Source of the DNA: a virus
Taxonomy: Duplodnaviria; Heunggongvirae; Uroviricota; Caudoviricetes
Virus record (IMG/VR): IMGVR_UViG_2695420412_000012
DNA length: 12,607 nt
Direction: 5' to 3' (one strand)
Below are positions 181 through 12,447 of this stretch, piece by piece (position 1 is the first letter of the stretch; each line of letters begins with the position of its first letter). The translations under genes and the position numbers were made by a program. The notes beneath the pieces were generated by a model. The model was not told where the DNA came from and made no database searches. It saw nothing but the letters and a program-made list of their open reading frames with translations.

Positions 181-276
181 AAGAAATGAAAAAAGGCCAC
201 GCAGTTGCGCAGCCTGATAAACCCTGGTTAAAATCCACACGATAACAACACAACAATATCAGTATCTCATGCTATT

Positions 277-301
277 GCCCGAACCCATTCGGGCATTTTT
301 T
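277..301 (+). terminator. Rho-independent terminator (gcccgaa-ccca-ttcgggc followed by attttttacc)
   Basis: 7-bp GC-rich stem, 4-nt loop, then a T-run on the + strand. Confidence 0.55.
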
Positions 302-307
302 ACCCAT

Positions 308-338
308 AAAAAATGCCCCTCCGGAGAGGGGCATTTTT
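308..338. terminator. Bidirectional rho-independent terminator (A-run, atgcccctc-cgga-gaggggcat, T-run)
   Basis: Perfect 9-bp stem flanked by an A-run upstream and a T-run downstream, so it can terminate either strand. It would end the leftward (minus) late/accessory transcript. Confidence 0.65.
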
Positions 339-535
339 GCATGCACATTCTTTTTCTTGCATGGTGCCGGGTGCCTCCCGGTGAATTCAGTATCAGCACC
401 TGAATCCGCGATTATCACATATACCTACTTGCTGATTGCCCCTCCGCACAGGGGGATTCACCATGCAGTAGTATTTTTAATAAACAGCAAATAAAAAAAT
501 CAAGCATTATGCAGGCTGTTTCTTTTTATCACCGG

Positions 536-1263: not shown

Positions 1264-2085
1264 CTATCTGGTCACCTTTTTCAGTTGTTGTTCTGCCCAT
1301 GCTTCTTCAATATCAAACTGCACCACCAGCGTATCGTAAAAACGTTTAACTGTTTTTTTCCATGTATCAAGAGATATGGCATCGGTTACATTACATATGG
1401 CATTAAATGCCTCCGTTGAAGGTAATCTTTCATAGCCACGACCACCACAACGCTGGCAGTCTCTGATAACAGGCATACCACGTTTTACCGACTCTTCACG
1501 ATGAATGGCAACACCGCGCCCACGACAATCTTTACAGGCGGTGGAAACCTCCCCCTTCCCTCCACACTCCGGACAGGCAACTTTTACCACCTCCCTGACT
1601 TTTTTCCATTCCTCCCAGTAAGACGGATACACGCCTTTTGTGCACTTTGCCCACACTGGCGGCTTACCATCCGGATACTGGATCTTGTTTGTAAAAACCT
1701 CGCTTTCAATAAATTTTTTTCCGTGACAACAGGGGCACTGTTTTTTGCTCGCCGCGCTACGGGCATAATCTTCAAACGCATACGAAGCCATAATACGCAT
1801 CACTGCCGGTTTTATTTCTGCCGGGAGTTTTCTTAACGCCGCCACGCGATCACACCGACTGAGTGCATATTCTGTCAGCAATTCTGTTGCCCGCTCTCTG
1901 TCATTCATACTAATGCCCATTTTCCCAAGGAACGCAGAAAACCCCATCTCAGCCCAATTCTGTGTCATGCCCTGCGCGGCCATCACATCAGTGATACTCA
2001 GCGTATCTTTCGACGTTGAGGCCGATGCATCAGTCAGGCCGAGGGATTTTGGGGAGTAGTATTTCGGTAAATCTTCCAGTTTCAT
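1264..2085 (-). CDS. Q: Late-gene antiterminator Q (lambda Q family, 273 aa, with multiple CxxC zinc-binding pairs)
   Basis: ATG at 2083-2085. N-terminus ...YSPKS...TDVMAAQGM... and C-terminus ...LPSTEAFNAI...VKRFYDTLVVQ parallel lambda Q. Cys pairs CPCCHG, CPECGG, CKDCRG, CQRCGG. Followed by the pR'-like promoter. Confidence 0.9.
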   Translation of the reverse strand: MKLEDLPKYYSPKSLGLTDASASTSKDTLSITDVMAAQGMTQNWAEMGFSAFLGKMGISMNDRERATELLTEYALSRCDRVAALRKLPAEIKPAVMRIMASYAFEDYARSAASKKQCPCCHGKKFIESEVFTNKIQYPDGKPPVWAKCTKGVYPSYWEEWKKVREVVKVACPECGGKGEVSTACKDCRGRGVAIHREESVKRGMPVIRDCQRCGGRGYERLPSTEAFNAICNVTDAISLDTWKKTVKRFYDTLVVQFDIEEAWAEQQLKKVTR

Positions 2086-2456
2086 TTTTTGACCTGCCCT
2101 TCAAGCATTATGGGGTAAATCTTCCCCCCCAGACGTCCACCAGATACTGGCTGACCACGAACGATATTGATTTCATCAAACTGCTCATCGTCCATTAACA
2201 CTCCCGCATGCGTCAGCGCATCCAGCGGTGCTTTCAGGATATTGTCCAGGTCGCGACGACGCTTATCCGGTGGCTCCACAATAATCCTGATCGCCAGCCT
2301 TCCGGACAGATTTAATTTCAGTCGCTGCTGGCGAACAATAAGCGCCACATCACGGCGATAACGCTCACCGGCTTTTGATACAAAATATGTGCTGCCACGA
2401 CGTCGCCAGTAGGTGTTCACCGTCGGCGGGTAAGGCAAAACAAACTCTATACGCAT
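2082..2456 (-). CDS. rusA: RusA Holliday-junction resolvase (124 aa)
   Basis: ATG at 2454-2456. Motif [15 protein letters not shown] ... [30 protein letters not shown] is typical of the RusA family. Its stop overlaps the Q start (ATGA). Confidence 0.9.
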   Translation of the reverse strand: MRIEFVLPYPPTVNTYWRRRGSTYFVSKAGERYRRDVALIVRQQRLKLNLSGRLAIRIIVEPPDKRRRDLDNILKAPLDALTHAGVLMDDEQFDEINIVRGQPVSGGRLGGKIYPIMLEGQVKK

Positions 2457-2468
2457 CAGTAACCCCTT

Positions 2469-3500
2469 TTACCCAAGCACGCCGGTTGCAAAGGCGTGAT
2501 CAAGAAAACGAAAAATTAAATCAACCTGAGAACCATGCTTTTCTTCGAACGCCAGCGGATCCGCATGAAGCTCGTTGTGATGCTCCCGACACAGCGGTAG
2601 CGTGAAAATATCGTGGGATTTTGTTCCCATTCCGCCCTGACCATGACCAATCAGGTGATGGGGATCGTCGGCTGGCTTACTACAACACGCACACGGCTGT
2701 GTCTTCACCCAGCGTGTGTATTTCTCGTTAACCCAGCGGCGACGTTTAGGTCGTTTCATGAAAGATTCCGGAGACTCAGGATCAACGGCAATGCTGACCA
2801 CCGTCTTTTCCTGTGGTGGGTTCTGTTGCTGGTGGGCGTGAGGCAGCGGCGCAAGATTTTTTGTGCGCTGTTTCAGTATGCTGGTGGCGGTCTGCTCTCC
2901 CGGTACGATGTCGCTTTCACGGTACATTGAGCGGATTTTTTCTGCACGCAACCCCAGCGAACGACGTAATACCGCTTCCGGTAGCGCGTCCGCCACCTGA
3001 TTGCGGACCGCCCACCAGGATAATTCAGCCAAAGATAATTCACGCTCCTGCGTACCGCTTATTGCGTGACCAGGCGGCTTACCATCCGGATACTGGATCT
3101 TGTTTGTAAAAACCTCGCTTTCAATAAATTTTTTTCCGTGACAACAGGGGCACTGTTTTTTGCTCGCCGCGCTACGGGCATAATCTTCAAACGCATACGA
3201 AGCCATAATACGCATCACTGCCGGTTTTATTTCTGCCGGGAGTTTTCTTAACGCCGCCACGCGATCACACCGACTGAGTGCATATTCTGTCAGCAATTCT
3301 GTTGCCCGCTCTCTGTCATTCATACTAATGCCCATTTTCCCAAGGAACGCAGAAAACCCCATCTCAGCCCAATTCTGTGTCATGCCCTGCGCGGCCATCA
3401 CATCAGTGATACTCAGCGTATCTTTCGACGTTGAGGCCGATGCATCAGTCAGGCCGAGGGATTTTGGGGAGTAGTATTTCGGTAAATCTTCCAGTTTCAT
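2469..3500 (-). CDS. Chimeric in-frame ORF: Q N-terminal 143 codons fused to the C-terminal ~200 codons of the YdfU-like protein
   Basis: 3072-3500 matches the 5' part of Q at 1657-2085; 2469-3071 matches the 3' part of the 349-aa gene at 6204-6806. The breakpoint is at 3071/3072 (gtgacc|aggcggcttacc). The 343-aa ORF reads through it. Confidence 0.7.
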   Translation of the reverse strand: MKLEDLPKYYSPKSLGLTDASASTSKDTLSITDVMAAQGMTQNWAEMGFSAFLGKMGISMNDRERATELLTEYALSRCDRVAALRKLPAEIKPAVMRIMASYAFEDYARSAASKKQCPCCHGKKFIESEVFTNKIQYPDGKPPGHAISGTQERELSLAELSWWAVRNQVADALPEAVLRRSLGLRAEKIRSMYRESDIVPGEQTATSILKQRTKNLAPLPHAHQQQNPPQEKTVVSIAVDPESPESFMKRPKRRRWVNEKYTRWVKTQPCACCSKPADDPHHLIGHGQGGMGTKSHDIFTLPLCREHHNELHADPLAFEEKHGSQVDLIFRFLDHAFATGVLG

Positions 3501-3871
3501 TTTTTGACCTGCCCTTCAAGCATTATGGGGTAAATCTTCCCCCCCAGACGTCCACCAGATACTGGCTGACCACGAACGATATTGATTTCATCAAACTGCT
3601 CATCGTCCATTAACACTCCCGCATGCGTCAGCGCATCCAGCGGTGCTTTCAGGATATTGTCCAGGTCGCGACGACGCTTATCCGGTGGCTCTGCAATCAC
3701 CTTTATCGCCAGCCTTCCGGACAGGATTAATTTCAGCCGCTGCTGGCGAACAATAAGCGCCACAGCCCGGCGATAACGCTTTCCCTCCTCCGAGATAAAA
3801 TATGTGCTGCCACGACGTCGCCAGTAGGTGTTCACCGTTGGCGGGTAAGGTAAAACCAAATCTATGAGCAT
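3497..3871 (-). CDS. rusA: RusA resolvase, divergent copy (124 aa, MLIDLVLPYPP...)
   Basis: ATG at 3869-3871. Same family motifs as the other two copies but with several substitutions (N-terminus, IKVIAEPP, KRYRRAVALIV). Confidence 0.9.
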   Translation of the reverse strand: MLIDLVLPYPPTVNTYWRRRGSTYFISEEGKRYRRAVALIVRQQRLKLILSGRLAIKVIAEPPDKRRRDLDNILKAPLDALTHAGVLMDDEQFDEINIVRGQPVSGGRLGGKIYPIMLEGQVKK

Positions 3872-3883
3872 CAGTCACCTCTT

Positions 3884-4933
3884 TTACCCAAGCACGCCAG
3901 TTGCAAAGGCGTGATCAAGAAAACGAAAAATTAAATCAACCTGAGAGCCATGCTTTTCTTCGAACGCCAGCGGATCCGCATGAAGCTCGTTGTGATGCTC
4001 CCGACACAGCGGTAGCGTGAAAATATCGTGAGATTTTGTCCCCATTCCGCCCTGACCATGACCAATCAGGTGATGGGGATCGTCGGCTGGCTTACCACAA
4101 CACGCACACGGCTGAGTCTTCACCCAGCGTGTGTATTTCTCGTTAACCCAGCGGCGACGTTTAGGTCGTTTCATGAAAGATTCCGGAGACTCAGGATCAA
4201 CGGCAATGCTGACCACCGTCTTTTCCTGTGGTGGGTTCTGTTGCTGGTGGGCGTGAGGCAACGGTGCAAGATTTTTTGTGCGCTGTTTCAATATGCTGGT
4301 GGCGGTCTGCTCTCCCGGTACGATGTCGCTTTCGCGGTACACCGAGCAGATTTTTTCCGCTGGTAATCCCAGCGAGCGACGTAATACCGCTTCCGGTAGC
4401 GCGTCCGCCAGCTGATTGCGGACCGCCCACCAGGATAATTCAGCCAGAGATAATTCACGCTCCTGCGTACCGCTTATTGCGTGACCGATGACGTCAATCA
4501 TCCATGCTGACAGGTTTTGATGAGCAAGTTGCTCGAGTGATTCGGATGTCTGGTCACGCAGCTGGTTGTCGCAGTGCCAGCACAACACCATTGCGCCGGT
4601 ACCATATCGGTGAATAACGGTTTCGCTGTGATGATAATCGCCGTGTGGCCACTGGCAGGATTTAATATGGCGCAACAGCCAGTCAGACAATGCACCAGCA
4701 CCACCAGCAGCACGAATTACCCGTGCGTTACTGAAAAACGGCAGCAATGTTTTGTCTTCCACCAGCGGCTGGCGAACGGCAGGAACGACCCCGGACGGCA
4801 GATTACGCATGCTTTTCGGTTCCGGCTCCACCAGTAACCGGGTATTGTGGAATACCGGCATGGATTCACGGCCCGGCTTAACGATCACCAGCCCGAGTTC
4901 CGGTACCAGAACAGGTCGAAGTAATACCCGCAC
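3884..4933 (-). CDS. YdfU-like 349-aa protein with two Cys/His clusters (DUF968-type, putative HNH-like nuclease), divergent copy
   Basis: GTG at 4931-4933 with GGAGG 4 nt upstream. Cys/His clusters CQWPHGDYHH...CWHCDN and CACC...HHLIGHGQGG...CREHHNELH. Length and position (between a small gene and rusA/Q) match Qin prophage YdfU as I recall it. Confidence 0.8.
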   Translation of the reverse strand: MRVLLRPVLVPELGLVIVKPGRESMPVFHNTRLLVEPEPKSMRNLPSGVVPAVRQPLVEDKTLLPFFSNARVIRAAGGAGALSDWLLRHIKSCQWPHGDYHHSETVIHRYGTGAMVLCWHCDNQLRDQTSESLEQLAHQNLSAWMIDVIGHAISGTQERELSLAELSWWAVRNQLADALPEAVLRRSLGLPAEKICSVYRESDIVPGEQTATSILKQRTKNLAPLPHAHQQQNPPQEKTVVSIAVDPESPESFMKRPKRRRWVNEKYTRWVKTQPCACCGKPADDPHHLIGHGQGGMGTKSHDIFTLPLCREHHNELHADPLAFEEKHGSQVDLIFRFLDHAFATGVLG

Positions 4934-4934
4934 G

Positions 4935-5213
4935 TTACCTCCAGATGCGTTGCTGGAATGTGCGGGACGGACGCGGTGGGCGTTCGGAGTAAGGAAGCCT
5001 GACGGAGATTATCCAGTGACGGTAGTCGAGGCTAAGGGCTTTTTTAACCTCGTATCCGCGCCTGCGGTAACACTGAATTATCCATTCAGCCTGCTCTTCA
5101 GTGCATGGTGGATGCTGGAACCAGTCCGATTTGAATGCATGAAAACGCCGTCCGCACCTGCTGGCAAAGACGGCAGAATCATCAGAATTGTGTAATTTGG
5201 TATCGTGCGCCAT
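4935..5213 (-). CDS. Small protein (92 aa, MAHDTKLHNSDD...) in the position of Qin rem
   Basis: ATG at 5211-5213. Its stop abuts the GTG of the 349-aa gene. Second copy at 7255-7527. The longer 129-aa track ORF is an upstream extension without support. Confidence 0.55.
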   Translation of the reverse strand: MAHDTKLHNSDDSAVFASRCGRRFHAFKSDWFQHPPCTEEQAEWIIQCYRRRGYEVKKALSLDYRHWIISVRLPYSERPPRPSRTFQQRIWR

Positions 5214-5399
5214 CGGTTGTCTCTTCTGGCGCAGCAGGTGCCAGTTGTTCAGGCTGGCGTATAAAGTATAAATAAACTGGTTCCAGTGTAAAGCCCCTAC
5301 ATTAATGGAATAAAAGTCAAACAACAGATTGCTGGGATAAACACAACGCTTATTATTAAAAGCGATTAGATAAATTAAATTTTAATGTTATGCAATTTT

Positions 5400-5570
5400 A
5401 GGTAATGACTCCAACTTATTGATAGTGTTTTATGTTCAGATAATGCCCGATGACTTTGTCATGCAGCTCCACCGATTTTGAGAACGACAGCGACTTCCGT
5501 CCCAGCCGTGCCAGGTGCTGCCTCAGATTCAGGTTATGCCGCTCAATTCGCTGCGTATATCGCTTGCTGA
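5400..5570 (-). mobile_element. insB: IS1 remnant: right terminal inverted repeat plus the 3' end of insB, 171 bp
   Basis: ggtaatgactccaacttattgatagtg... is the IS1 terminal IR. The encoded tail ...[47 protein letters not shown] is the InsB C-terminus. IS1 identity stops at 5570, where Q sequence begins. Confidence 0.9.
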
Positions 5571-5820
5571 ACGCCGCCACACGATCGCACCGACTGAGTG
5601 CATAATCTGCCAGTAATTCTGTTGCCCGCGCCCTGTCATTCATACTGATGCCCATTTTCCCCAGGAACGCAGAAAACCCCATCTCAGCCCGATTCTGTGT
5701 CATGCCCTGCGCGGCCATCACATCAGTGATACTCAGCGCATCTTTTGACGTTGAGGCCGATGCATCGGTCAGGCAAGGGGATTTTGGGGAGTAGTATTTC
5801 GGTAAATCTTCCAGTTTCAT
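5416..5820 (-). pseudogene. Truncated Q (first ~83 codons, divergent allele) fused in frame to the insB 3' end
   Basis: 134-aa ORF: [30 protein letters not shown]...SRCDRVAA then IS1-derived [14 protein letters not shown].... Junction at 5570/5571. Confidence 0.85.
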
Positions 5821-6191
5821 TTTTTGACCTGCTCTTCATGCATTATGGGGTAAATCTTCACCCCCAGACGTCCACCAGATACTGGCTGACCACGAACGAT
5901 ATTGATTTCATCAAACTGCTCATCGTCCATTAACACTCCCGCATGCGTCAGCGCATCCAGCGGTGCTTTCAGGATATTGTCCAGGTCGCGACGACGCTTA
6001 TCCGGTGGCTCCACAATAATCCTGATCGCCAGCCTTCCGGACAGATTTAATTTCAGTCGCTGCTGGCGAACAATAAGCGCCACATCACGGCGATAACGCT
6101 CACCGGCTTTTGATACAAAATATGTGCTGCCACGACGTCGCCAGTAGGTGTTCACCGTCGGCGGGTAAGGCAAAACAAACTCTATACGCAT
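5817..6191 (-). CDS. rusA: RusA resolvase (124 aa)
   Basis: Almost identical to 2082-2456 except at the 3' end ([15 protein letters not shown]), where the overlapping Q allele differs. Confidence 0.9.
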
Positions 6192-6203
6192 CAGTAACCC
6201 CTT

Positions 6204-7253
6204 TTACCCAAGCACGCCGGTTGCAAAGGCGTGATCAAGAAAACGAAAAATTAAATCAACCTGAGAACCATGCTTTTCTTCGAACGCCAGCGGATCCGCA
6301 TGAAGCTCGTTGTGATGCTCCCGACACAGCGGTAGCGTGAAAATATCGTGGGATTTTGTTCCCATTCCGCCCTGACCATGACCAATCAGGTGATGGGGAT
6401 CGTCGGCTGGCTTACTACAACACGCACACGGCTGTGTCTTCACCCAGCGTGTGTATTTCTCGTTAACCCAGCGGCGACGTTTAGGTCGTTTCATGAAAGA
6501 TTCCGGAGACTCAGGATCAACGGCAATGCTGACCACCGTCTTTTCCTGTGGTGGGTTCTGTTGCTGGTGGGCGTGAGGCAGCGGCGCAAGATTTTTTGTG
6601 CGCTGTTTCAGTATGCTGGTGGCGGTCTGCTCTCCCGGTACGATGTCGCTTTCACGGTACATTGAGCGGATTTTTTCTGCACGCAACCCCAGCGAACGAC
6701 GTAATACCGCTTCCGGTAGCGCGTCCGCCACCTGATTGCGGACCGCCCACCAGGATAATTCAGCCAAAGATAATTCACGCTCCTGCGTACCGCTTATTGC
6801 GTGACCGATGACGTCAATCATCCATGCTGACAAGTTTTGGTGAGCAAGTTGCTCAAGTGATTCTGAGGTCTGGTCACGCAACTGGTTGTCGCAGTGCCAG
6901 CACAACACCATTGCGCCGGTACCATAACGGTGAATGACGGTTTCACTGTGGTGATAATCACCGTGTGGCCACTGGCAGGATTTAATATGGCGCAACAGCC
7001 AGTCAGACAGTGCACCAGCGCCGCCAGCAGCACGAATCACACGCTCATTGCTGAAAAATGGCAGTAATGATTTATCCTCCGCCAGCGGCTGGCGAACGGC
7101 AGGGACGACTCCGGATGGCAGGCCGCACATGCTTTTCGGTTCCGGCTCCACCAGCACTCGAGGATTATGAAATATCTGTATGGATTCACGGCCCGGCTTA
7201 AGGACCACCAGCCCAAGCTCAGGCACCAGAACAGGTCTAAGTAATACCCGCAC
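6204..7253 (-). CDS. YdfU-like 349-aa Cys/His-rich protein (DUF968-type, putative HNH-like nuclease)
   Basis: Full-length copy. Its 3' 600 bp is identical to 2469-3071. Confidence 0.8.
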   Translation of the reverse strand: MRVLLRPVLVPELGLVVLKPGRESIQIFHNPRVLVEPEPKSMCGLPSGVVPAVRQPLAEDKSLLPFFSNERVIRAAGGAGALSDWLLRHIKSCQWPHGDYHHSETVIHRYGTGAMVLCWHCDNQLRDQTSESLEQLAHQNLSAWMIDVIGHAISGTQERELSLAELSWWAVRNQVADALPEAVLRRSLGLRAEKIRSMYRESDIVPGEQTATSILKQRTKNLAPLPHAHQQQNPPQEKTVVSIAVDPESPESFMKRPKRRRWVNEKYTRWVKTQPCACCSKPADDPHHLIGHGQGGMGTKSHDIFTLPLCREHHNELHADPLAFEEKHGSQVDLIFRFLDHAFATGVLG

Positions 7254-7254
7254 G

Positions 7255-7527
7255 TTACCTCCAGATCCGTTGCTGGAAAGTGCGGGACGGACGTGGTGGG
7301 CGTTCGGAATAAGGCAGCCTGACAGAGATTATCCAGTGCCGATAGTCGAGACTGAGAGCTTTCTTAACCTCGAACCCGCGCCTGCGGTAAGAATGAATCA
7401 GCCATTCGGCCTGTTCTTCAGTACATGGTGGGTGTTGGTACCAGTCGGTTTTAAATGCGTGTGAACGCCGCTCATGCCGGATGGCAAGGTCGGTATCAGA
7501 ATTGTGAAATTTGGTTTTGTGCGCCAT
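7255..7527 (-). CDS. Small protein (90 aa, MAHKTKFHNSDTD...), rem-position gene
   Basis: ATG at 7525-7527. Paralog of 4935-5213. Confidence 0.55.
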   Translation of the reverse strand: MAHKTKFHNSDTDLAIRHERRSHAFKTDWYQHPPCTEEQAEWLIHSYRRRGFEVKKALSLDYRHWIISVRLPYSERPPRPSRTFQQRIWR

Positions 7528-7694: not shown

Positions 7695-7850
7695 TTACTC
7701 CTCAGGTTCGTAAGCTGTGAAGACAGCGACCTCCGTCTGGCCGGTTCGGATTCGTACCTCGCAGAGGTCTTTCCTCGTTACCAGTGCCGTCACTATGACG
7801 GTTAAACAGATGACGATCAGGGCGATTAACATCGCCTTTTGCTGCTTCAT
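7695..7850 (-). CDS. hok: Hok-family membrane toxin (51 aa, HokD/RelF-like)
   Basis: MKQQKAMLIALIVICLTVIVTALVTRKDLCEVRIRTGQTEVAVFTAYEPEE shows the Hok signature (TM helix, TRKxLCE, EVAxFxAYE). AAGGAG lies 9 nt upstream. An in-frame upstream ATG at 7905-7907 would give a 70-codon mok-like extension. Confidence 0.9.
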   Translation of the reverse strand: MKQQKAMLIALIVICLTVIVTALVTRKDLCEVRIRTGQTEVAVFTAYEPEE

Positions 7851-8109
7851 AGCCTGCTTCTCCTTGCCTTTCGGCACGTAAGAGGCTAACCTAGATTTGC
7901 CGTTCATAGATTGAGCCTCAGATTAATGTTAAGCGTCTTGCAGGACGCGTAATGTTAACTGGGGCTTTTCTCTATCTGCCTTTTGGTGTTCATGCCTGAG
8001 ACAGATAGCCTCAAGCACCCGCAGTCATTCTACTTAACTAAGATTTCCCCGCAAACCGTTTTTGTCCGGCACAGTAAATATCCAACTAAACCAATGGCGT
8101 TCGCTGTAT

Positions 8110-8289
8110 TTACCGCCAGTATTCAATGCACATGACCGCCATGAACACCCCTAAAAAAAGGGCATTTATATATCCAAATATTAATATCAAAACATCAACT
8201 TTTTCCATATACCTTGCTGTGAAGATGATGGGCATACATGATACGAACAACCAGAACGCAACAAACAAAAACTGCAATGCGTTTTTCAT
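8110..8289 (-). CDS. Small membrane protein (59 aa, two predicted TM segments) in an AT-rich island
   Basis: ATG at 8287-8289 preceded by AGGAGG 4 nt upstream. Sequence MKNALQFLFVAFWLFVSCMPIIFTARYMEKVDVLILIFGYINALFLGVFMAVMCIEYWR. The surrounding 8100-8420 is markedly AT-rich. Confidence 0.5.
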   Translation of the reverse strand: MKNALQFLFVAFWLFVSCMPIIFTARYMEKVDVLILIFGYINALFLGVFMAVMCIEYWR

Positions 8290-8459
8290 TATTCCTCCTA
8301 CAATCAATGTGCAATTACATTTAAACACACCTCAATTTGGCCGGACATATAAATATCTAAACCAGAAAAAATCACTTACATAGCGTTACAAACTCTTTAG
8401 TCTAAATATTCATCGTAAAACATTCCCCATACTTATCAGCCCGTTCTGCGCCAGGTAGC

Positions 8460-8776
8460 TCATTGCCTTATCTGGGAATCTGTAATCAGGTTTCCGGATG
8501 CTGGTGGATTTTCGCGTTTTAGTTGTTCATAAAAGTGCACAGCTTTAACCAGTTCTTCTGATGTAACCGGGACTGGCGGGGCAGTGAATAAGGCCTGAAT
8601 TTCATAGTTCGGCCTGTCGTTACAATCCTCTTTTTTCGGTACATATTTCCAGTCACCAGACCACTACTTCCCCTGAAAGTCCGTAACGCCTTTTTTTTCA
8701 CGTAGCGATATCGCCATGCCACTGTTTTTGCTTGCCCCGCCGTTTCATGCCCTTCCTGATAATTAACCTCGCTCAT
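8460..8776 (-). pseudogene. Apparently frameshifted gene (about 110 aa if repaired) with the shift at a T6 homopolymer (8631-8636)
   Basis: Frame 1 gives MSEVNYQEGHETAGQAKTVAWRYRYVKKKALRTFRGSSGLVTGN then low-complexity sequence. The alternative frame after the A6/T6 run gives a protein-like tail ...EDCNDRPNYEIQALFTAPPVPVTSEELVKAVHFYEQLKRENPPASGNLITDSQIRQ* ending at 8460. Confidence 0.3.
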
Positions 8777-8949
8777 TCATCGCCCCACTCATCACAATAT
8801 GCTTCGACCGGAGTTTTTCCTGCTTCATAATCATCACGCCATGCTTCAGCATCAGCAGCACTGCCACCACGTAACTCTGCATAGTCCATTAACAGTTCAT
8901 GCCATTCTTCAAAACTGACGTTGTATTTAGTTGAACCAAAATCAGCCAT
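8773..8949 (-). CDS. Small acidic protein (58 aa, MADFGSTKYNVSFEEWHELLMDYAELRGGSAADAEAWRDDYEAGKTPVEAYCDEWGDE)
   Basis: Hand-translated. Its ATG overlaps the stop of the upstream acidic ORF (ATGGCTGA), suggesting translational coupling. Confidence 0.45.
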   Translation of the reverse strand: MADFGSTKYNVSFEEWHELLMDYAELRGGSAADAEAWRDDYEAGKTPVEAYCDEWGDE

Positions 8950-9124
8950 TTTGTTCTTCCTCTTCGTCTTTTATTTCGTGATATGAGTAATTGCAGTAGT
9001 TAAAGAAAATATCTTTTGCTTCGTCATGTATTTCATCAGGCGTCGCATCATCATCCACTTCGAATTCATCCTCGAAATCTCCACCGGCTATTCCCGTTTC
9101 AATAATTATTTTAAACTTTCGCAT
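8942..9124 (-). CDS. Small highly acidic protein (60 aa, ...GGDFEDEFEVDDDATPDEIHDEAKD...EIKDEEEEQNG)
   Basis: ATG at 9122-9124. An AGGAGG on the minus strand is separated from the ATG by the perfect hairpin ccgccc-tttc-gggcgg (9132-9147). Confidence 0.5.
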   Translation of the reverse strand: MRKFKIIIETGIAGGDFEDEFEVDDDATPDEIHDEAKDIFFNYCNYSYHEIKDEEEEQNG

Positions 9125-9217
9125 TTAACTACCGCCCTTTCGGGCGGCCTCCTGATGTTCTGAGGGTGCAGAAATCCCTCCGGTTAAGGATTAAATTTTT
9201 AACAGAGCTAAATTTAA

Positions 9218-12027: not shown

Positions 12028-12447
12028 ATGGACAAATATGAATTTAGACGACAGCAACTCATCAAAATTCGTGATGAGAAATGCGATGGTAAAGCGGTTA
12101 ACGTGGCCAGAAAGATCGGGCGCGAGCCTTCTTATGTATCAAGAATGTTGTACCCAGAGGGGAAAAAGGGAAAAAAACGGATCGCTGATGATATGGTGGA
12201 GATTATCGAAGAGTCCTTTGGGTTACCCCGGGGATGGATGGATGGTATCGTTTCATCATCAACGAACACAGCCTCCAGTTATGAAACAAGGGTTCTAACG
12301 CCACGACAACGTATTTTTTTAGATCTCTTAGACGAACTGCCAGAAAGTGAAGCGGATAACTTATTAAAAACTCTTGAAGAGAAAAAACAGTATTACAATA
12401 TGATCTACGAAGAAATCCGTAAAAAGAAAGCACAAAACGCATCATAG
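12028..12447 (+). CDS. Prophage repressor-like HTH protein (139 aa, RacR/CI-position)
   Basis: ATG at 12028. HTH-like segment KAVNVARKIGREPSYVSRML. It is the only clear + strand gene and is divergent from the cro-like gene. No obvious S24 peptidase motifs. Confidence 0.7.
   Translation: MDKYEFRRQQLIKIRDEKCDGKAVNVARKIGREPSYVSRMLYPEGKKGKKRIADDMVEIIEESFGLPRGWMDGIVSSSTNTASSYETRVLTPRQRIFLDLLDELPESEADNLLKTLEEKKQYYNMIYEEIRKKKAQNAS

Follow-up and report, generated by a model that had tools for sequence, protein, structure and literature searches.

How can a gene be translated when its Shine-Dalgarno (SD) sequence lies 23 nucleotides (nt) from its start codon, and what might be the role(s) of the small acidic proteins encoded behind such a start? 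These questions are raised by a locus in the IMG/VR record IMGVR_UViG_2695420412_000012, a 12,607-nt stretch of DNA from a virus (Caudoviricetes) that is referred to below as the window. At this locus, two short open reading frames (ORF1 and ORF2) overlap by a few nucleotides, and a hairpin separates an AGGAGG motif from the ORF1 start codon. A preliminary description of the locus proposed that the two ORFs are translationally coupled, that the hairpin either brings the SD sequence close to the start codon or gates translation, and that the two proteins form a candidate counter-defence pair. The best-supported functional reading from our analysis is that ORF1 would be translated from a split ribosome-binding site, in which the hairpin bridges the distance between the SD sequence and AUG. 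The features of the locus are as follows.

9148-9153, minus strand: AGGAGG Shine-Dalgarno sequence, at a linear distance of 23 nt from the ORF1 ATG (9124)
9131-9148, minus strand: hairpin G-CCGCCC/GAAA/GGGCGG-U, 7 bp including a terminal G.U pair, with a perfect 6-bp core at 9132-9147
9125-9130, minus strand: spacer AGUUAA, giving an effective SD-AUG distance of 6-7 nt with the hairpin formed
8942-9124, minus strand: ORF1, a 60-amino-acid (aa) acidic protein of the DUF7167 family
8958-8962, minus strand: GAGGA, the SD sequence of ORF2 itself, 8 nt upstream of its ATG and within the poly-Glu codons of ORF1
8942-8949, minus strand: 8-nt stop/start overlap of ORF1 and ORF2, ATGGCTGA
8773-8949, minus strand: ORF2, a 58-aa acidic three-helix protein of the PHROG 519 family

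The two small, strongly acidic minus-strand ORFs, their 8-nt overlap and the perfect 6-bp hairpin core between AGGAGG and ATG were all found as originally described. The GAGGA motif of ORF2, and an ATGA overlap between ORF2 and a third short ORF (ORF3), are additions to that description. ORF1 contains 20 Asp+Glu and 5 Lys+Arg residues (net charge -15, isoelectric point 4.05), and ORF2 contains 16 Asp+Glu and 4 Lys+Arg residues (net charge -12, isoelectric point 4.05). Asp+Glu make up a fraction of 0.33 in ORF1 and 0.28 in ORF2, compared with 0.04-0.18 in ten neighbouring genes. ORF1 and ORF2 are real genes under strong purifying selection, since the ratio of nonsynonymous to synonymous polymorphism (pN/pS) among distinct intact alleles from phage contigs was low while that of the +1 frame controls exceeded one: 0.087 versus 6.2 for ORF1 (39 alleles) and 0.168 versus 1.5 for ORF2 (45 alleles). 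Coding on the opposite strand, where a plus-strand ORF spans 9026-9163, was considered and rejected, as pN/pS favours the minus-strand frames.

Upstream of ORF1, the mRNA reads AGGAGG-CCGCCC-GAAA-GGGCGG-UAGUUAA-AUG. The hairpin (-14.4 kcal/mol) is the dominant element in both the minimum free energy and the centroid folds, and its variants retain about -6 to -14 kcal/mol. Markov simulations of the window provided the expectation for such elements. GC-rich perfect 6-bp hairpins numbered 10 in the window, approximately 5-fold more than the 1.9 ± 1.7 simulated. The composite arrangement of an SD sequence, a hairpin and, 4-9 nt further on, the start codon of an ORF that is 40 aa or longer was found at this site only, against 0.16 per window in the simulations. 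Because 12% of the simulations contained at least one such arrangement, it is by itself only mildly unlikely, and the argument is carried by the conservation data.

We computed nucleotide diversity (pi) in the start region among 58 haplotypes. The value for AGGAG was 0.014, similar to that for codon positions 1+2 of ORF1 (0.013) and far from the 0.19 at its four-fold sites. A non-coding pentamer 24-29 nt away from the start codon would hardly be so constrained unless it acts as a ribosome-binding site; at such a distance it would need the hairpin, which would cut the spacing to 6-7 nt. The arms of the hairpin varied to different extents, with a pi of 0.048 in the G-rich 3' arm and 0.16 in the C-rich 5' arm. 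Changes in the 5' arm were mostly C to U and kept G.U pairs, an asymmetry that is expected from selection for pairing. Across 26 distinct variants of the hairpin 94% of cells were paired, and one compensatory haplotype (G-C to A-U) was present in 7 loci.

There is a precedent for this type of start. Genes 38 and 25 of phage T4 have split ribosome-binding sites that were proven by mutation, and whose SD-AUG spacing is reduced from 22 to 5 nt and from 27 to 11 nt, respectively (PMC3014915). As in T4, the SD sequence here is too far from AUG (23 nt), and a stable stem-loop that lies wholly between the two would restore the spacing (to 6-7 nt). T4 gene 25 offers a further parallel: as there, only one closely related lineage has the arrangement, and distant homologues have ordinary starts. 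However, the T4 genes are T-even late genes, whereas ORF1 belongs to a temperate lambdoid cassette and its element travels with the gene between genome positions; moreover, the arrangement at ORF1 is predicted from sequence, and its stem covariation was not significant. Together with the conservation of the distant AGGAG, the T4 precedent lends support to the original suggestion that the hairpin brings the SD sequence near the start codon.

Several observations weigh against a bridging hairpin. Every measure of stem covariation among the 26 variants was reached by 252-286 of 500 shuffles, an A.C mismatch occurs in six distinct haplotypes, and ORF1 is intact in six loci that have lost AGGAGG and most of the 5' arm. 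Distant DUF7167 genes have ordinary starts that are coupled to the upstream gene, with no hairpin. Lastly, the conserved 3' arm contains GGCGGU, an SD-like motif that differs from GGAGGU at a single position and is 6 nt away from AUG, and hence the hairpin could be repressive instead of enhancing. Gating had been the second option of the preliminary description. In the model considered here, GGCGGU would be the true ribosome-binding site of ORF1, hidden by the stem, and the output of ORF1 and the coupled ORF2 would be low until the stem is opened, possibly by ribosomes, a helicase, temperature or a factor. The much stronger conservation of the 3' arm agrees with gating, as do the six loci without an upstream AGGAGG, in which just a 4-bp stem (-8.3 kcal/mol) is kept. 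However, a structure that is under selection and tolerates G.U pairs would be expected to show the same asymmetry between its arms, and GGCGGU is a poor SD sequence. Nor would a hidden downstream SD sequence explain why the strongest non-coding constraint falls on the distant AGGAG, and a stem of -14.4 kcal/mol over the sole SD sequence would leave ORF1, on which purifying selection is strong, almost silent. We consider gating to be quite unlikely, and infer that the ribosome-binding site of ORF1 is split.

Other roles of the hairpin were examined. It is not an intrinsic terminator, as no T run follows it, and a scan found no terminator or promoter on the coding strand near the two genes. A boxB/nut-like element was rejected on account of the wrong location, the different loop and the finding that the element moves with the cassette. 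Rfam had no match at the hairpin. A 5-bp hairpin further upstream (GAGGG...CCCUC) is not conserved, its variants breaking the pairs. We also noted that alleles with TAGTGAAATG instead of TAGTTAAATG at 9125-9130 lose the in-frame TAA just before the ORF1 ATG. This loss probably explains why the protein also has database entries of 87-93 aa, which are apparently over-extended through the hairpin.

The start region and the two genes lie in a 388-nt cassette. Of 5426 complete E. coli genomes, 1749 (about a third) contain a match that covers 80% or more of it; identity ranges from 90 to 100%, and a single genome can hold as many as four copies. The preliminary description had made its proposal depend on conservation in related prophages, and this conservation is evident. 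Just 5' of AGGAGG, no further away than about 5 nt, the cassette meets unrelated upstream DNA at a mosaic junction. In Shiga toxin (Stx) phages of the ArgO145 type, for example, the cassette occupies an early-left ea22-type region, where the gene upstream is unrelated and terminates 4 nt ahead of AGGAGG; there, the neighbours of the cassette are methyltransferase, anti-repressor, HNH and toxin-antitoxin genes. Since the boundary of the cassette is just 5' of AGGAGG, the SD sequence and the hairpin belong to ORF1 and not to the upstream gene.

Next to the start region, the junction between the two genes deserved a closer inspection. ORF2 by itself accounts for the 8-nt overlap, because the TGA that ends ORF1 is an out-of-frame part of the first ORF2 codons, ATG GCT GAT. 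The stop in the ORF2 start codons ends three unrelated upstream genes: DUF7167, the DUF1187 gene of IncI2 plasmids and, in a Klebsiella plasmid, an ORF of 140 aa. The ORF2 start is a portable 8-nt stop/start junction. The same junction was seen at 7001-7008 of the IncI2 plasmid and at 5001-5008 of the Klebsiella plasmid. ORF2 comes immediately after ORF1 in 79 of the 80 E. coli phage contigs, with an overlap that is kept and fits the translational coupling that had been proposed.

Do ORF1 and ORF2 work together? An obligate two-component counter-defence module, in which both proteins would jointly mimic DNA and block restriction-modification or RecBCD-type nucleases, could account for their adjacency in the 79 contigs and for two proteins of about 60 aa with net charges of -15 and -12. 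The early accessory location in ArgO145, beside methyltransferase, anti-repressor and toxin-antitoxin genes, is in line with this idea, and so is the flagging of PHROG 519 proteins in Kuttervirus genomes as candidate anti-CRISPRs by the machine-learning tool PaCRISPR (PMC9409062). The E. coli copies, however, are near-identical descendants of one module, and adjacency is limited to the E. coli lineage; beyond it, each family occurs without the other, in virulent phages among others. No ORF2 was found beside the DUF7167 genes of Klebsiella lambdoid phages, Guernseyvirinae or Enterococcus Herelleviridae, and no ORF1 with the ORF2 relatives of Ackermannviridae, a KP34-like phage, IncI2 plasmids or large Klebsiella plasmids. 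An E. coli-type ORF1 homologue (79% identity) retains the hairpin and has no ORF2 alongside. The co-occurrence across divergent lineages that would mark an obligate two-gene system was looked for and not found. A toxin-antitoxin pair was also rejected, as both proteins are acidic and they are not co-distributed. Our comparisons thus suggest that ORF1 and ORF2 are a pair by linkage within one lineage only, and do not support them as a functional pair; the obligate module seems to us very unlikely. Of the original interpretation, the coupling and the logic of the SD-hairpin arrangement stand, and the counter-defence pair does not: distant DUF7167 genes occur with neither ORF2 nor hairpin, and ORF2 relatives occur without ORF1.

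The genomic setting bears on the role of the proteins. The window corresponds to the early region of a Qin/DLP12-type lambdoid prophage of E. coli, read on the minus strand. Two further features locate the cassette within it.

12028-12447, plus strand: cI-like repressor
8519-8776, minus strand: ORF3, 85 aa, basic, with an ATGA overlap with ORF2

After the cI-like repressor come cro, a cII/YdaT-like gene, an O-like replisome organiser, a DUF977/Ren-like gene and a gene for a 137-aa zinc-ribbon protein, and then ORF1, ORF2, ORF3, hok/sok, DUF968, RusA and the antiterminator Q. The same gene order is seen in a prophage region of E. coli FDAARGOS_536 (99.9% identical over a 1.2-kb query) and in phage vB_EcoS-640R1. 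Based on this match, ORF1 and ORF2 sit in the nin-like delayed-early region of the early-right (pR) operon, between the replication genes and hokD/DUF968/RusA/Q, in agreement with the early location given in the preliminary description. ORF3 is what a frameshift has left of a gene for 119-171 aa (MSEINYQEGHETAGQAKPVAWRYRYVKK...) and is marked as a pseudogene by RefSeq in the near-identical prophage region; in other contigs, its slot is taken by intact 119-171 aa versions or by Ead/Ea22-like replacements.

What are the two proteins? ORF1 is a member of Pfam family DUF7167 (PF23768), with a score of 55.1 bits against a gathering cut-off of 24.4 and with residues 2-53 aligned to positions 1-60 of the 60-position model. 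It also matches phrog_1997 (PHROG 1997; E 9e-31), and RefSeq names it a DUF7167 family protein. The pattern IET...FEV.DDAT...C.Y of the family is found in ORF1. In a 56-sequence alignment, the positions conserved at 90% or more were M1, V6, I8, E9, T10, F21, E22, D25, A27, T28, I32, A36, F40, C44 and Y46, and ORF1 has every one of them except V6, which is Ile. It fits DUF7167 as a single-domain protein of about 55-60 aa, and shows no feature that sets it apart from this family, which has no assigned function. An AlphaFold2 model (predicted local distance difference test score, pLDDT, 88.6) shows a beta-hairpin packed on one helix, followed by a disordered acidic tail. Its structural matches in BFVD, a library of viral structures, are only uncharacterised phage proteins of ~57 aa, with relatives at the level of structure in phAPEC8, Lactococcus phage 949 and a Streptomyces phage. 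A scan of one genome per species returned only three DUF7167 loci, a number insufficient for comparing synteny.

ORF2 matches phrog_519 (E 4.5e-23) at positions 76-137 of the 143-position profile only, that is, its C-terminal module; scans gave no Pfam family (E up to 0.1) and no NCBIfam family. AlphaFold2 predicts a bundle of three helices (pLDDT 82.9). Among 1.84 billion representative proteins, a profile search found relatives in only 73 clusters, nearly all of them stand-alone proteins of 50-65 aa. ORF2 relatives adjoin the major capsid gene in Ackermannviridae, and one lies between the genes for DNA polymerase and 5'-3' exonuclease in the KP34-like podovirus phiKDA1. In T7, small host-factor inhibitors are encoded between the polymerase and exonuclease genes. 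ORF2 relatives are also present in large Klebsiella plasmids, and about 400 IncI2 conjugative plasmids carry a homologue of 88% identity after a DUF1187 gene. In the one IncI2 plasmid that was examined (NZ_CP011294.1, 6348-8662), a same-strand run of a CaiF/GrlA-family regulator, DUF1187, the ORF2-like gene, SPFH and NfeD lies between repA and the type IV secretion genes. The 111-kb Escherichia phage EP_H11 encodes, at 1506-2162, a 218-aa NADAR protein (residues 16-160, E 7e-27) that has an ORF2-type domain at its C-terminus.

Several pointers suggest that such proteins bind a host factor or act in counter-defence: the extreme acidity, the very small and confidently predicted folds without enzyme-like features, the early accessory location, the presence on conjugative plasmids, the position in phiKDA1 and the rare fusion to NADAR. 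Phage NADAR (AdfN) is a proven anti-DarTG1 enzyme (PMC11825919), and the layout of the EP_H11 fusion recalls the two-domain DarG antitoxins in joining an enzyme domain to an acidic partner-binding domain (PMC11825919). ORF2, however, stands alone without a NADAR domain, and the PADLOC DarG models did not match the ORF2-type domain. In small size, very low isoelectric point and early or accessory location, the two proteins also resemble the DNA mimics T7 Ocr, ArdA, lambda Gam and T7 gp5.9.

Other findings weigh against a counter-defence role. Neither protein matched an anti-defence or DNA-mimic family known from Pfam, NCBIfam, PADLOC, PDB sequences or PDB folds. Scans of Pfam, PHROG, NCBIfam and PADLOC returned DUF7167 and unnamed PHROGs but no further, functional family, and neither phmmer nor profile searches matched a PDB sequence. 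Pfam at E up to 0.1 and the PDB sequence searches place neither protein with Ocr or ArdA, the fold of a known DNA mimic was looked for and not found, and no relation in sequence or fold to the anti-RecBCD inhibitors lambda Gam, T7 gp5.9 and P22 Abc was detected. The homology to Ocr, ArdA or anti-RecBCD families that the preliminary description had envisaged was thus not borne out, as no similarity in sequence or fold to these or to any solved protein was found. The Pfam and PHROG identifiers of both proteins are absent from the supplements of a 268-protein anti-defence catalogue. Save for the anti-CRISPR flag on PHROG 519, we found in the literature no functional study of DUF7167, the PHROG identifiers or the RefSeq accessions. 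Only 4 of 646 phage records that match the NADAR part or the ORF2-type domain cover at least 80% of the fusion protein. The Ackermannviridae relatives of ORF2, beside the major capsid gene, are in no obvious early region. What speaks for a DNA-mimic or anti-defence reading is charge, size and location only.

The main alternative for the function of the proteins lies in the DNA metabolism of the phage itself: as small acidic adaptors, or as regulators, they would serve one of its nucleases, recombinases or replication proteins instead of being directed against the host. Such a role is suggested by the company that the genes keep. The DUF7167 gene of Guernseyvirinae is coupled to a DUF2800/PD-(D/E)XK exonuclease gene, whose start it overlaps, and a gene for a Gp2.5-like single-stranded DNA-binding protein is nearby; in Enterococcus Herelleviridae, DUF7167 follows a DUF3850/ASCH protein that is annotated as an exonuclease. 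To these may be added the ORF2 relative between the polymerase and exonuclease genes of phiKDA1, and the cassette in the window, which follows the replication genes. The neighbours differ in every lineage, however, with no consistently conserved partner: the genes that flank the cassette in E. coli are Ead/Ea22-like or unknown ORFs, and in IncI2 plasmids ORF2 is beside DUF1187, SPFH and NfeD genes. We hold this alternative to be improbable. A bolder proposal is that the cassette, present in about a third of E. coli genomes, is an unrecognised host-takeover or counter-defence unit. Its products would be two independent acidic decoys, inhibitors of different nucleic-acid-binding proteins of the host or of a competitor, and its portable translation signals (the hairpin-bridged SD sequence in front and the stop/start junction of ORF2) would allow it to function at any site to which recombination moves it; this we regard as unlikely.

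Collectively, our results are consistent with a mobile accessory cassette of lambdoid coliphages that would encode two small acidic binders or decoys behind a split ribosome-binding site; taken as a whole, we think this explanation has an even chance of being correct. The cassette brings along the signals for its translation and encodes two small acidic proteins that are unrelated to each other, one from DUF7167 and the other a three-helix protein of PHROG 519. The hairpin between AGGAGG and AUG would leave 6-7 nt and allow ORF1 to start. Since the cassette carries its own bridged SD sequence, translation would be independent of the upstream sequence, and the cassette would be translatable wherever it lands, whatever lies upstream. 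ORF2 would be translated from its own GAGGA and, probably, by termination-reinitiation at the ATGGCTGA overlap. Each of these small acidic proteins may act alone, as a binder or decoy whose target is a protein of the host or of a competitor and might itself bind nucleic acids. Tentatively, its role might be in host takeover or counter-defence, and would be neither enzymatic nor structural.

Elsewhere in the window, we noted that the DUF968-RusA-Q block is present three times (within 1264-7527), compared with a single copy in the reference prophage. A 300-nt repeat has two copies that are 100% identical (1829-2128 and 3244-3543) and a third that is 93% identical (5564-5863). Two ORFs on the minus strand are chimeric: the one at 2469-3500 has the N-terminus of Q fused to the C-terminus of DUF968, and the one at 5416-5820 is a truncated Q N-terminus. 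The triple block could be a genuine tandem amplification or an artefact of assembly. The hok/sok type I toxin-antitoxin locus comprises a Hok/Gef ORF (7695-7907) and sok RNA (7845-8020), both on the minus strand. Between ORF3 and hok lies a 72-aa hydrophobic ORF (8110-8328, minus strand) that starts MFKCNCTLIVGGIMKNALQFLFVAFWLFVSCMPIIF... and has no Pfam or PHROG match; it may encode a small membrane protein. Downstream of Q are two prophage small RNAs, STnc100 (302-492, minus strand) and the anti-GcvB RNA AgvB (240-301, plus strand).

Neither small acidic accessory genes nor split ribosome-binding sites are new, and the cassette is ordinary in kind. Its significance lies in the placing of two families of unknown function in a very common E. 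coli prophage cassette, Shiga-toxin phages included, in which the strong purifying selection implies that the proteins are useful to the phage or the lysogen. The start region would be a further natural hairpin-bridged ribosome-binding site outside the T-even phages, with conservation at the level of populations. For annotation, gene callers that look for an SD sequence 5-10 nt ahead of the start codon may overlook starts of this kind; where an allele lacks the in-frame TAA, they extend the gene to 87-93 aa. Being common and conserved, with two catalogued families and a likely split ribosome-binding site, the cassette is a reasonable experimental target, and the small size of both proteins would make them easy to test against panels of defence systems.

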